A DNA stretch of 64,000 bases from Octopus vulgaris (Eukaryota): NCBI GenBank assembly GCA_951406725.2, contig OX597823.1, forward strand, positions 91,822,001-91,886,000, written 5' to 3'. The notes beneath the pieces are model-generated. The model worked only from the letters and a program-made list of their open reading frames with translations. It was not told the origin of the DNA and did no database searches. The stretch's first letter is position 1. Every line of letters starts with the position of its first letter. Position numbers and translations under genes: made by a program. Shown here piece after piece: positions 790 through 62,740 of this stretch.

Positions 790-870
790 AAACTCGAAAC
801 GTCGAAGACTTTTTCCATTTTTCCTGAGCGTCAAACTAATCCACGTTGTTTGTAGTTCCCTCCCCTGTCT
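790..870 (+). mobile_element. Fragment of HHR-bearing repeat family H1
   Basis: ctcgaaacgtcgaagacttt...cctgagcgtcaaactaat matches the copies at 57150-57328 and 45575-45830. Confidence 0.6.
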
Positions 871-894
871 CTGATATCTTTATCTTTATCTATT

Positions 895-1219
895 ATTGTT
901 TCCAGTCATTACACTACAGTTATGCAGCACTTTTTAAGCTTTGTACTTATTCTCTAGGTCACTTAGGCTGAACTGCTAGGTAAGCCAATACCGGTCGTCA
1001 AGCTGTGGTGGCGGACAAACAAAAAATGTTGATACACACGTAGAAACATCCATATAAATAGGGCAGACACATTTCAGTTCCCATCTACCAAATCCACTTA
1101 GAAGGCTTTGGTCAGCCTAGGGCTATAGGTGAAGACACTTGCCGAAGGTGCCACGCAGTTGACTGAACCCAAGGCTATATGATTGAGGAGGAAGTTTCTA
1201 AGCCACGCATTCATGCCTG
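895..1219 (-). mobile_element. SINE family A, degraded
   Basis: Reverse complement of the family A body (ctaccaaatccact...aaggtgccacgcag). Confidence 0.8.
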
Positions 1220-1249
1220 ATCTTCAGAGTAAATAATTATTTGAAATCT

Positions 1250-1480
1250 TGACACGAGGCCAGAAATCTTTGCAGGTGAGCGTAGTCGAATACATTGACC
1301 TCAGTACATGACTGGTACCTATCGACCCCGAGTGGACGTGAAAGCTGAAGTTGAAAGCTAAGTCAAAGAATAATATCTTTTATTCTTTTGCCTGTTTCAC
1401 TCATTAGACTGCGGCCATTCTGTGGCACCACCTTGAGCTTTTAGTCAAATGAATCGACCCCTGTACTTATTTATTTAGCC
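1250..1480 (-). mobile_element. SINE family B fragment followed by a family A tail
   Basis: gactggtacctatcgacccc (family B) and gcggccattctgtggcaccacc (family A tail). Confidence 0.65.
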
Positions 1481-3089
1481 TGCGGAATATAACTGCTGTC
1501 TGTTTAAGATATGAGCCGCACGTGGAAGGTTGTCTGTTGTCGCGGGTGTCACTGGCCATTCTCCGTGGCATCGTCTTTGCAACCATGTCCCACCAACCCT
1601 ACCATCTTTTTTTCCTTCTTCTTTGCTTCCTTGGTGAAGTAGCTATATTTTTTATTTCTCGACAATTTGATCTTTTATACTTTTAATGTTTTTTCTTTCT
1701 TTCGTTTCATTCTGTAGGAGGAATTACATCCGTGTTTCGTGGTCTGCTACCACAACAGCTCCTATATAGGATCCAGTTAGCTCAAGTCATCATCAGGAGG
1801 AACCACGTCCAGTTACGGCCCCTACTCCTCTACCGTTTTGACGTGCCCCCCCCTTTCGGAGGTGCCTTCAGCTCTGGTGTTGGGTGCATCTCTTCTTTTT
1901 TCTGTTCCCTGGCCTCTTCGATGTAGCGTCAGCGAGTGTCAGCCGGCGACTGACTGACTTCTCAAATTATTCCCTTTAAATACCTGCCGCTAGGCTCCAG
2001 CAGGCAGCCCCAGCAAGTTGTCACGTGACACTGTCTCACCTTAACTGACTAGTGAAGGCGCATCGTCTTAGCCCACGCATTCTCTAACCGACCGTCACCT
2101 GTCAGTCAGCGATGCTGATTCTGTGTCAGCTTGTCTCACCTAGTGATGTTATTTCCCGCCGGCATGTTATGACTTTCAAACCATATATTATTAATAAAAT
2201 GGGGTGTTTTTAATAGTGGAAAAGATGAAAAGTTCTCTTATAACATCTACCAAATACAAACTTCGAAATATGAGCATGATCTGTAAATTTGGTTATTTCT
2301 TGCTTGTCTTGAATAACTTCTCAAGCAATTGTCATAGCCCTATGTTTGTAGTTACAACCTACCACAACGTTCTATAATTTATTACATGAATCTCATGATT
2401 AATTCAAATACCAGTGTGACGTGGTATATTTTATATAACGTGTATGATATATATCTCTTTATTGCCTTAACACTCGTTAACCATTCTTAACATATGACCA
2501 TACCACAGTGGCAAAATCCATTACTCTGCATAAGCTAGATTGCTAGAATCATCTCAAAAATACTTATTTTCAAACCATTCATCATATTACATAAATTCTG
2601 TGTCCTACGGTTCTGTTGTTAATTTTCGGTCTTACGTTGCTATCACACGACATGCGACGTTACAAGGCATGTGTACTGGGCTCACTCATAGAACTACGGC
2701 CATGTAGGTGAACCACCTTCAAGGATCTTTTTGATTACATCAGGTTCCAATAATATTATCAGCCTGGCAATTATTTTGCCAATCTCCCTTTATTGAACTG
2801 CTAGGTAATTGGATATCATGACGTAAAACATGAACCGAGACACAACGCACACAAACATACACAGACATACAGAAAGCATACACCAATCTGTCGAAAGCCA
2901 ATGGACGTAACTTATATAAAACTCTCTCTCTCTCCCTCCCTGCATATATATGTATGTATATATGTGTGTGCGTGTATATATGGATGTATATGCATGTGTA
3001 TATATATATATAATAAATCAATAAATAAAACATATGCATATATACATACATATGTGTACTACCTACCTCTATATGTATATATACACGCA

Positions 3090-3490
3090 TATATGGGTAC
3101 AGGACACCAAAAAAACGTCGAACACAATGAGCAACGAAAACATAAACACAAAACCAAGGAACTGGACATTTTTCTTAAACAACAAAAAAATAGAGTACAG
3201 GACAAATAACACAAGGAAAATTCCCCTTCTTCAGTCGCCATAGTTTCATCTACTCTGCGTTTCGAAGGTGAAGGCGACACGCATCTTCGATAGAAACTTT
3301 CCTTCTCGCGAAAAGCAAATTAAATAAAATTTTAGATCTTTTTGCAGAGGGGTAAAAATGGTAACAAGAACAGGACAGTAACGACAGTACAAAATATAAA
3401 CAGTAAAAGACAGGACAAGGAGAATAACAAGACAAGAAAGGGCTGTTAAACCGAACGAGAAAAAGTATTACGAACGATATTTTTGAGAAA
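3090..3490 (-). mobile_element. Non-autonomous repeat family H3 with rearranged HHR-like motif
   Basis: Homologous to 14885-15100, 53760-54125 and 61795-62100. It shares gcaaattaaataaaattt with the latter two and GAAAY...GTA...CTGANGA-like motifs with all three. Flanked by microsatellites. Confidence 0.75.
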
Positions 3491-60600: not shown

Positions 60601-60952
60601 CATTAAGTGCTTACATTCAGAACCAGACACATGCATCGGATTAACTTTTGAGTAATTAAGAAAATTCAGAATCTAAATATGTTTGATTTTGATTGGAAGA
60701 CTCTAAGATATGGCATCTATCCCAGTTTGACTGAAAAATATTTCACGTGCGCGAAGCCAGCATCTTGCAGATTGTGTTTTAAGGGTTATCATGAAATCGA
60801 CCAAATATGCACTTAAAATGGTTTTGAAAGTAAGCTCCTCAGAATGTTGTTGTTAACAAACCACTAAACGCTGACTGATTTAAACTTAGGAGAAAAGATA
60901 TCTTACATAGATTAGGAGGAAACACATACCAAATACCGTTTAGCATTAGAAA

Positions 60953-61250
60953 GTGAGTAGCTTAGTGGATCGAGTATTGCGCTTACGATCGAAACGTCTC
61001 GAGTTCGAATACCGGTGGTGCGTTGTGTCATTCAGCAAGACACTTTATTTCACGTTGTTCCTGTCCATTTAGCTGGTGTAGTACCTGTAATTCGAAGGGG
61101 AGAAACCCTGTCACACTCTGTGTCACGCCGAATCTCCCTCCGAACTACGTTAAAGATACACGTGTCTGTGGAGTACTCAGCCGCTTGCATCTTAATTTCA
61201 GGAGCAGGCTGTTGCATTGATCAGATCAATTAGAGACCTGGTCGTCAGGA
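60953..61250 (+). mobile_element. SINE with a different tRNA-like head and family C tail type 2
   Basis: B-box gagttcgaatacc; ttgtgtcattcagcaagacactt; tail ctctgtgtcacgccgaat...cacgtgtctgtggagtactcagcc. Confidence 0.8.
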
Positions 61251-61794
61251 CAGACACACAGACAACCAGGATGTGAATACATACGCAAAGACACACGAAC
61301 GCACGCAAGCACAATCACACACATACACACACACACACATGCACGCGCACACGCACAAACATACACACACTCTCACAAACTCACACACAAGCAAAACCAC
61401 GCGCAAAGCATATGTCAAAACAGAAGACTAGAAAAAAATTGGCATATTTTTAATTTCATATTACACCGGTTTCATTCACAGCATATAGAAAAAAACACGT
61501 ATATAATACTTTTAATACTTTATACAAACATATGCGTGTGTATACGTGTGTGTGTGGGGGATGTGCGCGTACACGCACATGCACGTGGATTGCTTTATGT
61601 CCAACGAATGATAATGAAGAGCTCAATACATGTAGAGGATATTTTCCTTATTTCAACTGAAATTGATACCGAGATTTGCTTTAGTGACACGAGTGGGGCG
61701 AGACAATATATGATGATAATAATGTATATATATATGTGTGCATACATACATATATTTACATACCTACATATATATATGTATATATACATGCATA

Positions 61795-62100
61795 TTTGGG
61801 AACAGGACGAGGGCAAAATGAAAAACAAGAACATAGAAAACAAAAAAAAAACATGGAAAACGAACTTTTTTCGAACAACGAACGAAACAAATAGAGAAAC
61901 GAGACAGGCAGCATAAAGAACATTCCCTTCATCAGTTGTCCCCTGTTTTATTTACTCTGCGTTTCGAAAGTAGAGACAAGGCGCGACTTCATTAAAACAG
62001 TCCTTCTCGCAAAGCAAATTAAATAAAATTTGGGATTTTTGCAGAGGGTTAAAGTAATAACAAAAACAGGACAGTAAAAGAACAAAACAGTAAAAACAAA
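61795..62100 (-). mobile_element. Repeat family H3 copy
   Basis: tactctgcgtttcgaa identical to 3251-3266; aaagcaaattaaataaaattt also shared. Confidence 0.8.
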
Positions 62101-62654
62101 CGGCTAGCGCTGTTCAGCCATAACAATGTGTTATGTCGCACGTTCTGATGCCTTCTACACAACTCTGCTCTCTCTGTTCCTCCGGCTGCTACTCAGCTTT
62201 TCTCTACTCCACTCTGTTCTAGTCTACCCTCTACTACTCCCTGGCTGTGCTCTCTGACGACTAGACTTCTCACTCTATATCTACATATTGGGCTAGCCTA
62301 CTTCATCGTCTGGGGGCGTCCACACAACACAAGGTGAAGTGGCGAACGCTAGAGAAAGTAGCTAAGACAGGTGGTCTTATCTCTTGTAAAGCAAGAGGAA
62401 GAAAGAACGATAGCCGCTGGTCACGTGTGAGCAACGAACGTCAAAGAGGACGAGTGAGAGAAAGAGAACGGTGAAGGGGAGGATAGGAAAAACAGAAAGA
62501 AAGAAGAATAGCGATAAAGGGAGAATAGAGAGTGTAGAGTGTACATAGGAATTAAGATAAAATTTACTTGGAAATGAACGCCACGCATCCATTTCCAAGT
62601 AAATTTTATCTCTAACTCTCTCTTTATATATATATATATATATATATATATATA

Positions 62655-62740
62655 CCGGAGTAAACTGTAAAAACTTTAACGGCAACGGAAAATTCAGAGT
62701 AACAGGTTTTGTTGAATTTTCTGCTGCTTTAAATAAAGTA
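62655..62740 (+). mobile_element. Short (TA)n-flanked fragment related to the 18040 HHR unit
   Basis: gagtaacaggttttgttgaattttctgctgcttt versus gagtaacagtttttgtgatatttttgctacttt. Confidence 0.55.

Follow-up and report, generated by a model that had tools for sequence, protein, structure and literature searches.

A candidate type-SGC hammerhead family among Penelope-type hammerhead relics in octopus DNA

Hammerhead motifs of the window and their host elements

The window, i.e. the whole 64,000-nucleotide stretch of Octopus vulgaris DNA that was analysed (contig OX597823.1, positions 91,822,001 to 91,886,000), contains 21 hammerhead-like sites from about 13 repeat families, relics counted, which is above shuffled controls, and the majority of the copies are broken (Table 1). 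The total is made up of the 14 coordinates of a preliminary description, positions 790, 15340 and 62700, and four copies of a family termed B; the earlier figure of about 20 motifs, or one per 3 kb, is thus reached only with the relics included. The preliminary description had missed the type-SGC family. Our type I descriptor was run at four settings on the window, the reversed window and 40 local dinucleotide shuffles, and matched 2, 3, 2 and 4 motifs in the window and none in the reversed window, against shuffle means of 0.05-0.5; the observed count was reached in 0/40 shuffles at every setting, so that the motif excess stands. A further, earlier setting with a longer loop III additionally matched 56485 and two probable chance sites. 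The 692 kb of flanks of fetched loci gave 52 distinct matches, and 0 when reversed or complemented, a density of about 1 per 13 kb in flanks that are biased toward repeat-rich DNA. An Rfam scan of the window yielded no hammerhead at the gathering score, and none at E<=10 among the 150 of 578 matches listed; the E-value scan was dominated by microsatellite matches to miRNA models.

Table 1. Features of the window, in order of position; several coordinates were read off position rulers.
Feature	Position	Strand	Basis
Family A copy, without CUGANGA block	793-808	+	
Family B (B2) element, 5'-truncated, between TA-rich repeats	2990..3490	-	
B2 type-SGC hammerhead: site block, GAAA block 3263-3260, CUGANGA block 3234-3228	3223..3283	-	
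Type I minimal hammerhead of a PLE terminal repeat, with canonical core and palindromic stem III	3654..3741	-	descriptor, extended loci
Frameshifted PLE remnant, Cys-rich linker and GIY-YIG endonuclease	6118..6982	-	visible motifs
Family B remnant motif (element 14753-15070), C3 changed	15022..15069	-	
Family A copies	15328-15366 and 45661-45698	- and -	
Type I hammerhead, U4C core kept by family majority	17430..17533	-	family alignment, descriptor
Inverted pair of type I U4C motifs	18060..18131	.	family with truncated copy 62676-62735(+)
Decayed type I motif with altered G8, 6-bp stem I and palindromic stem III	28376..28464	-	
Type I motif, U4C, stem II weak	35939..36019	-	descriptor, relatives
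Type I hammerhead, canonical core, compact	38386..38425	-	descriptor, relatives
Decayed type I motif, abundant family (30 matches in 0.9-Mb pool)	45425..45456	-	
Type I hammerhead, canonical core, 8-bp stem II	46127..46220	-	family alignment
Doubtful relic without GAAA, not confirmed	46577..46676	+	
Partial type I motif that keeps site, GAAA, palindrome and a 9-bp stem I but has a decayed CUGANGA block	47153..47266	+	
B3 type-SGC motif (element 53783-54253, inverted 3' part), GAAA and stem I damaged	53883..53948	+	
Type I hammerhead, canonical core, 4-bp stem III	56479..56529	+	descriptor, relatives
Type I minimal motif of family A, with the A6U core of the family majority and G16.2 altered here	57201..57237	+	
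Inverted pair of partial type I U4C motifs	57553..57621	.	
B1 type-SGC motif (element about 61706-62600, with insert), U16.1 changed	61925..61985	-	

The sites proposed at 3654, 38386, 46127 and 56479 have a full canonical core in the window, while those at 17432, 18040 and 35939 have instead a U4C core that is common to their relatives. The sites at 28377, 45425, 45660 and 57200 belong to real families but are decayed copies; those at 47167 and 57555 are partial motifs, the former with its CUGANGA block decayed and the latter with no core-bearing relative in the pool of fetched loci, and the site at 46580, which lacks GAAA and has 0 relatives in the 0.9-Mb pool, is not confirmed. Core variants U4C and A6U occur in some type I families; a genome-wide U4C pattern was ill-designed and gave no enrichment (75 vs 122), so that the family alignments are the only basis of the U4C claim. 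The stems, described as unrelated, do fall into about 13 families, but family A has four copies (790, 15340, 45660 and 57200), family B has four, and 18040 and 62700 are one family. Proximity to microsatellites proved modest within the window, with 14 of the 21 sites lying within 200 bp of one vs 46% of random points (P 0.05) and 10 flanked on both sides within 400 bp vs 24% (P 0.02). Genome-wide, the 3' ends of family A, whose downstream 25-nt anchor has 4,884 exact matches, and of the 17432 family, in which tandem and inverted pairs occur, lead into a (TA)n tract or a related repeat in almost all of the matches listed, as judged by eye.

The GIY-YIG remnant of the preliminary description is present, and its 3' UTR reaches the hammerhead at 3654 and the (TA)n tract near 3550. 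In 9 of 10 extended loci this hammerhead lies inside the terminal repeat of full-length PLEs, a family in which intact 842-aa RT-endonuclease frames exist, and PLE ORF remnants were found in 4 of 20 loci related to 46127 (counted regardless of orientation). The proposal of many PLE or retrozyme-like families inserted in microsatellites is supported by the remnant and these two families, with the reservation that most copies are dead and several belong to the same family. PLE identity is based on visible motifs and 573 homologues, PF00078 being found on one among 120 listed; Pfam detected neither RT nor GIY-YIG on 14 window ORFs and two full PLE ORFs, and a PDB search was empty. By its features, the 3654 family resembles EN+ PLEs with a Cys-rich linker and (TA)n targets (Neptune, Hydra; PMC8557442), sharing the RT, Cys linker, C-terminal GIY-YIG, terminal repeat with hammerhead and inverted 5' copies.

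Many heterogeneous metazoan PLE families carry minimal type I hammerheads, which act as dimers (Cervera and De la Pena 2014, PMC4209133). The window families other than B share with these the extra base at 9/10.1, G10.1-C11.1 and a short, palindromic or absent stem III, as well as the heterogeneity of families and the solo truncated and inverted copies; they differ in having loops II of 60-70 nt and U4C and A6U cores that are family-wide. Most window motifs are known type I minimal PLE hammerheads, often decayed, and this part is known biology (PMC4209133). These families, with type I minimal or short-stem-III hammerheads, are expected to need dimers or a helper protein for cleavage. A 2017 study by Lunse et al. 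reportedly treats short-stem-III PLE hammerheads and may list octopus type I motifs.

Family B: architecture and covariation

Judged from its sequence, family B, the most abundant family examined, is a non-circularly permuted hammerhead and not type I: cleavage site, GAAA and CUGANGA follow in this order within about 60 nt (type SGC). The unit is non-coding, 700-830 nt long, and present in TA repeats as 5'-truncated, inverted and head-to-tail copies; the partial head-to-tail tandems, inverted 5' copies, TA targets and lack of an ORF are features of non-autonomous PLE derivatives. The GAAA-then-CUGANGA pattern has 8,597 matches in the genome vs 6 in the reversed control, and for the B2 element, with 4,605 first-look candidates, the 40 best genomic matches are 94-96% identical. 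None of the four window copies has all conserved core bases and all are broken; the B2 motif, whose cut is predicted between 3278 and 3277, has G at position 17, so that this copy is likely dead, and the 14753-15070 copy is 5'-truncated about 8 nt behind the predicted cut. Three PLE ORF remnants near family-B loci are separate insertions, and in the search for an autonomous partner the 40 loci compared, all from a single PLE group, did not match family B.

The subfamily majorities B1-B3, picked by DNA similarity and 67-78% identical mutually, all keep the core, with the tested bases C3-A9, G12-A14, A15.1-U16.1 and H17 present in each of the three, and the whole SGC descriptor was passed by 38/93 copies. 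Like PLE minimal hammerheads, the motif has one extra base, here A, between positions 9 and 10.1; N7 is U or A, stem III comprises 4-6 bp and stem I 5-7 bp, while stem II is short and G-U rich, a weakness that made the B1 majority fail the first descriptor. Among 46 full copies, 92% of the cells of stem III and 90% of those of stem I are paired, with both-sided changes in 4/5 and 5/6 pairs, respectively, and 159 compensatory cells compare with 63 in shuffles (0/500) and slid controls that are 42-53% paired; two of five covariation measures were no better than shuffles (183/500 and 446/500), the remaining ones are inflated by related sequences, and the core columns are invariant by selection of the copies. 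Pairing of cognate vs swapped strands gave 0/5000 for each of stem I, stem III and an extra helix, P0, formed by the 5' flank and the strand between stems III and I. In stem II 96% of the cells are paired, mostly as one G-C plus G-U, with 1/4 pairs varying on both sides and the columns partly fixed by the search pattern. Although the site block was absent from the genomic search pattern, 9/29 blind copies pass vs 2.6 in swaps (maximum 8 in 2000). A helix between the 5' and 3' flanks is energetically possible, but covariation is unsupportive (508/5000). Nested folding gave competing structures with unremarkable z-scores (-1.0, -0.04 and -0.68).

On these data, with a probability of roughly 70%, the window carries the relics of about 13 Penelope-type hammerhead families, of which family B has a site-GAAA-CUGANGA hammerhead that likely cuts its own RNA. 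Its P0 covaries strongly and adjoins stem I by only 0-3 nt, so that the cis fold needs a sharp bend. The hairpin of P0 and stem III, with the site and GAAA, could alternatively pair with a CUGANGA block supplied by an adjacent unit or by a second molecule, in which case only tandem transcripts would cut, a dimer logic as in PLE hammerheads reached by another route. An AGUA/GAA internal loop of several subfamilies, which we take to resemble the loop E motif, would stack P0 coaxially on stem III and prevent folding in cis, but the loop is different in some subfamilies. Head-to-tail B units are common and PLE minimal hammerheads do act as dimers (PMC4209133); against this, stems I and II are joined by a 2-7-nt linker and stems III and I by a 14-16-nt stretch, both as in the published geometry of cis-acting type-SGC ribozymes, and we consider cleavage between units unlikely.

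5' ends of family-B insertions

If the motif acts in cis, a read-through or tandem transcript of family B would fold into a double pseudoknot and cut after NUH. A PLE RT-endonuclease would nick (TA)n, prime at the 3' end of B and copy the RNA; on a cut template the enzyme would run off near the new 5' end and the cDNA would be trimmed to A/T microhomology, so that insertions start 0-12 nt behind the cut, while uncut or multimeric templates would give longer and tandem copies. Of the family-B 5' ends at risk, 11 of 69 lie at 0..+12 behind the predicted cut vs 2.5 expected (P 7e-5), which is the top 13-nt window of 5' ends along the element. In a second sample the same interval holds 26/85 5' ends and the next bins upstream 5, 4, 2, 1 and 1; among (TA)n junctions 31/35 fall at 0..+12 vs 4 at -1..-17, and 24/27 once previously used loci are removed (P 1e-6). 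The maximum lies at +5 to +8, on A/T bases, rather than at 0, and some counted 5' ends are inversions or internal deletions. Family A has no such pile-up at its own predicted cut (0/29). The pile-up of family B fits cleavage in vivo.

The position of the peak on A/T bases would also suit a structure that is real but uncut in vivo, i.e. a protein-binding or replication signal or a slow ribozyme, with the pile-up caused by RT pausing or (TA)n microhomology. The weak stem II points the same way, as does the Anolis PLE, whose insertion in vitro did not require cleavage and for which RNA-seq reads ending at the hammerhead site were absent (PMC11167929). This reading is even less probable than cleavage between units: the full catalytic core is present, H of the NUH at the predicted site is never G in the subfamily majorities, core-proximal pairs are kept while the stems turn over, the 5' ends fall sharply upstream of the site, and, with the 3' partner strands already behind the RT, the motif should retain no helix at +3 to +8. 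A descent of the motif into a decayed type I or type II hammerhead, with the SGC order a product of chance, is very improbable. P0 does flank a GUH triplet and a CGANGA-like stretch at the positions expected for a type I site and core, but U4 and stem II are lacking there in every subfamily seen and the majorities match neither type I nor type II; the covariation of stems I and III in the SGC order largely refutes this reading. The type I-like stretch may be an ancestor rather than a present function.

The cis-cleaving reading can be taken further, and here we see slightly better than even chances. Family B would be the first non-circularly permuted ribozyme in an animal chromosome, with thousands of copies and at least ten covarying subfamilies, and would derive from a type I minimal hammerhead of a PLE, the former stem I having turned into a structural strut; it would cut in vivo, and the 5' ends of the insertions would be a fossil record of the cleavage site and direct evidence on the role of PLE hammerheads.

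Relation to known systems and meaning

Type SGC has been reported only from metatranscriptomes and none from genomes of known organisms, and natural type-SGC ribozymes cleave in vitro (PMC10085705). Family B shares with HRIMA-1 and its variants (Eckert et al. 2023, PMC10085705) the block order, double pseudoknot, short stem I-II linker, canonical core and one extra base after A9, a likeness of architecture. In HRIMA-1 an accessory helix, absent from the authors' search pattern, joins the free sides of stems I and II (PMC10085705), whereas no such helix was found in family B, in which the partner of the strand ahead of stem I is the 5' flank, forming P0. Since the extra base of family B is A and its N7 is U or A, the authors' patterns CUGAUGAG and CUGAUGAUG could not match it. 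A scan of metagenomes with the B pattern gave 8 matches, none with a matching site block by eye, which we take as chance. Most of the B2 element is covered by contigs from four sequencing runs that are presumably RNA, and the element is also present in four further runs under four organism labels; all run data are contigs, which show neither ends nor expression, with no run on record as RNA and no back-joint listed.

Two features set family B apart from the PLE minimal hammerheads: its full stem III and a block order other than type I. It shares short non-coding hammerhead units and head-to-tail copies with animal non-LTR retrozymes, proposed to be non-autonomous PLE derivatives (PMC7229834; bioRxiv 10.64898/2026.07.22.740005); those, however, have as defining features a type I hammerhead in tandem repeats of 150-450 bp and circular RNAs, whereas family B is type SGC, 700-830 nt, mostly dispersed and truncated, and its majorities contain no type I hammerhead per unit. 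No earlier paper on its permuted hammerhead was found, and what appears new, from sequence comparison, is an SGC-order hammerhead in an octopus retroelement family.

Non-circular permutations in natural RNAs were first reported in 2023, with the hosts of type SGC not named there. An SGC retroelement family with thousands of copies in a eukaryote would provide a host, a deep set of covarying sequences, an accessory architecture unlike the published one and a possible evolutionary route from type I. Furthermore, the in vivo role of PLE hammerheads is unsettled (PMC4209133, PMC11167929), and the 5'-end pile-up provides a genome-only test of it. Descriptors confined to type I would miss permuted ribozymes in animal repeats, including those of PLE groups reported without hammerheads (PMC8557442).

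Block order and covariation in family B

In the four window copies of the non-coding repeat family B, GAAA precedes CUGANGA, and the core is damaged in all four. In the majority sequence of 25 copies resembling the one at 61960 (subfamily B1), a GUC triplet lies upstream of GAAA. The bases in front of this triplet are complementary to those that follow GAAA, and the bases behind it to those in front of CUGANGA. Eckert et al. (PMC10085705) call this order of predicted site, GAAA and CUGANGA type SGC. The majorities of subfamilies B1, B2 and B3 share 67-78% identity pairwise. Those of B2 and B3 pass a six-permutation descriptor as SGC, B3 with an additional, weaker GCS match; the B1 majority fails it, two Watson-Crick pairs being demanded in stem II. 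A pattern made up of only the GAAA and CUGANGA blocks matches the genome 8,597 times, compared with 6 when reversed. Ninety stretches around 100 of the 8,597 yielded 93 copies from at least 10 subfamilies, of which 38 pass the full SGC descriptor, extrapolating to about 3,500 copies genome-wide. The unit (about 710 nt in B1, 765-828 nt in B2) occurs in head-to-tail partial tandems; copies are truncated to varying extents at the 5' end, where segments may also be inverted, and their ends are rich in TA; inverted copies (loci L148, L197 and L239) turn around at stem I or the linker. A search for an autonomous partner of family B found none.

Of the 54 copies whose 5' flank is intact, 46 were aligned, eight being dropped as truncated, deleted or near-duplicate. 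In stem III, 92% of cells are paired and four of five pairs change on both sides; the remaining pair is the invariant A15.1-U16.1 (44/46 copies). Stem I is 90% paired with both-side changes in five of six pairs. Stem II is 96% paired but G-U rich, and one pair covaries. Slid controls reach 42-53%. Compensatory cells number 159 overall, compared with 63 +/- 8 in shuffles (0 of 500), and the score is 0.42 against 0.24, but neither the number of pairs that covary (183 of 500) nor that of pair types (446 of 500) beats the shuffles. Swapping partners between copies weakens pairing in stems I and III and in an extra accessory helix, P0 (each 0 of 5000). A possible flank-to-flank helix has no such support, as swaps do not weaken its pairing (508 of 5000). 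P0 forms between the 5' flank and the strand that links stem III to stem I. It leaves a gap of 0-3 nt to stem I and is unlike the accessory helix described for SGC ribozymes so far published. Nested folding programs, in which the pseudoknot cannot form, return competing folds. Enclosed by P0 are a GUH triplet and a stretch resembling CGANGA, positioned as in a type I motif lacking U4 and stem II, a layout which suggests that family B may descend from a type I minimal hammerhead. We put the probability that the predicted SGC structure is real at about 0.9.

Positions of 5' ends

Copies of B2 were sampled with an anchor placed some 100 nt behind the predicted cut, and 5' ends were mapped in 90 usable copies from 806 genomic matches. 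Of 69 copies at risk, 11 end at 0..+12, where the hazard along the rest of the element predicts 2.5 (P 7e-5); the strongest windows along the element start at 0 to +5, and the next three bins upstream hold 2, 0 and 1 ends. In a pattern-picked sample 26/85 copies end at 0..+11, although 7 of these 26, at +9 or more, may be edge effects, and the next bins hold 5, 4, 2, 1 and 1; each of the two samples includes some ends that are due to inversion or deletion. Junctions with (TA)n within 30 nt of GAAA, tallied by eye among the matches listed (100 of 935), lie at 0..+12 in 31 of 35 distinct loci and at -1..-17 in four; without loci already used, 24/27 of those among the matches listed lie at 0..+12 (P 1e-6). 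The mode of family B ends is +5 to +8, and exact starts at the predicted cut occur outside B2, in copies of other subfamilies. Ends behind the cut would result if RT ran off a cut template and trimming to A/T microhomology followed. The rival explanation is that RT pausing produced the pile-up; for an Anolis PLE (Penelope-like element), the part of the report available describes RNA-seq without ends at the cleavage site and cleavage that needed protein (PMC11167929). In family A, a type I minimal-hammerhead family, no 5' end (0/29) lies at its own cut (P 0.03 against family B). Cleavage of the template remains our preferred reading: the predicted ribozyme is probably active, and it may, somewhat more probably than otherwise, set 5' ends in vivo.

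The 5' ends of family A copies (L001-L030, L326-L355) cluster about 60-100 nt upstream of the family's hammerhead, and many of them closely follow a GUC triplet fitting no hammerhead reading; they may mark a further cut site or a transcription start.

Type I motifs and Penelope-like elements

The window belongs to a 118-Mb contig in a 2.8-Gb genome. Its GC content ranges over 22-44% in 2-kb steps, microsatellites and short repeats are dense in it, and its SINE sequences look octopus-like. No hammerhead is among the matches listed in an Rfam scan of the window. Depending on the setting, 2-4 motifs fit a type I descriptor; the reversed window gives 0, and none of 40 local shuffles gives more than 2. 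A total of 692 kb of flanking DNA holds 52 distinct motifs against 0 and 0 in two controls. The preliminary description had put the number of hammerhead motifs at about 20. Adding seven further sites to its 14 gives 21, in about 13 families, and to that extent the figure stands, but many of the 14 do not hold as intact motifs: compared with relatives of each, 4 have a canonical core, 3 a family-wide U4C core, 4 are decayed members of real families, 2 are partial and 1 (46580) is unconfirmed.

Features of the window
Position	Strand	Feature
near 3250, 15050, 53900, 61960		family B copies
1730-1800	-	CUGANGA and distant GAAA without valid NUH; no relatives in the pool of fetched loci
6118-6982	-	PLE remnant, frameshifted, linker plus GIY-YIG
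about 7150-7770	+	GC-richer; similar in appearance to the ORF2 3' end of an L1/Tx1-type LINE; no Pfam match
14264-14476	-	mariner-type transposase remnant (HTH_48, E 4e-13)
17430-17533, 35939-36019		type I, U4C core
18060-18131, 57553-57621		type I, U4C core; inverted copies turning around just 5' of the core
19850-20480		276-bp tandem duplication of microsatellite-like DNA
27283-27468	+	second, weaker PLE RT-region remnant
31440-31490, 38510-38700, 41745-42030, 54006-54115		long inverted repeats (MITE-like or fold-back insertions)
37171-37243	-	isolated tRNA-Lys(CTT)-like sequence, acceptor stem with mismatches; possibly pseudogene or SINE head
about 54500-55120		second, probable Tc1/mariner remnant (by eye)

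A PLE GIY-YIG remnant had rightly been noticed in the window; of its 13,009 first-look candidate relatives 150 were scored, and some relatives have open frames of at least 842 aa that contain RT motifs; its named protein relatives, among the matches listed, come only from Argonauta hians. The claim that PLE terminal regions carry minimal type I hammerheads agrees with the 3654 motif, which whole or in part adjoins a PLE ORF in 9/10 extended loci, in several on both sides; in the 46127 family PLE ORF remnants occur in 4/20 loci. A young PLE family (G000 loci L386-L393; open frames of 752-936 aa, many near-identical copies) is a candidate RT source for the non-autonomous families. The ordinary type I hammerheads match those described for metazoan PLEs in the accessible text of PMC4209133: they have an additional base at 9/10.1 and a palindromic stem III, and they occur in many families and as inverted pairs. 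Linker-bearing PLE clades are known to target TA (PMC8557442, in part). This part of the window is a further instance of known biology, as is most of the preliminary finding as written.

The U4C cores belong to four unrelated families, and A6U is the majority state of family A, where position 7 is free to vary. U4C is a natural viroid variant of reduced activity (PMC3088659, whose text, as available, lacks A6U). Both, the latter with free position 7, are possibly tolerated core variants.

Relation to published SGC ribozymes

Eckert et al. validated SGC ribozymes in vitro (0.007-0.19 per min) and, in the portions available, report none found in genomes of known organisms; octopus is absent from the accessible supplement (PMC10085705). 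Their search patterns, as given there, require CUGAUGAG or CUGAUGAUG, so the family B motif is unmatched by them. Retrozyme papers, in their accessible parts, treat type I hammerheads only, without mention of octopus (PMC7229834; bioRxiv 10.64898/2026.07.22.740005), and the main text of a 2026 octopus repeat annotation, so far as available, contains neither ribozyme nor hammerhead (PMC13282606). No paper in the openly available literature searched describes a permuted hammerhead from an animal genome. The type-SGC hammerhead carried by this high-copy animal retroelement is a well-supported structural discovery, and the genomic traces point indirectly to its predicted cleavage in vivo.
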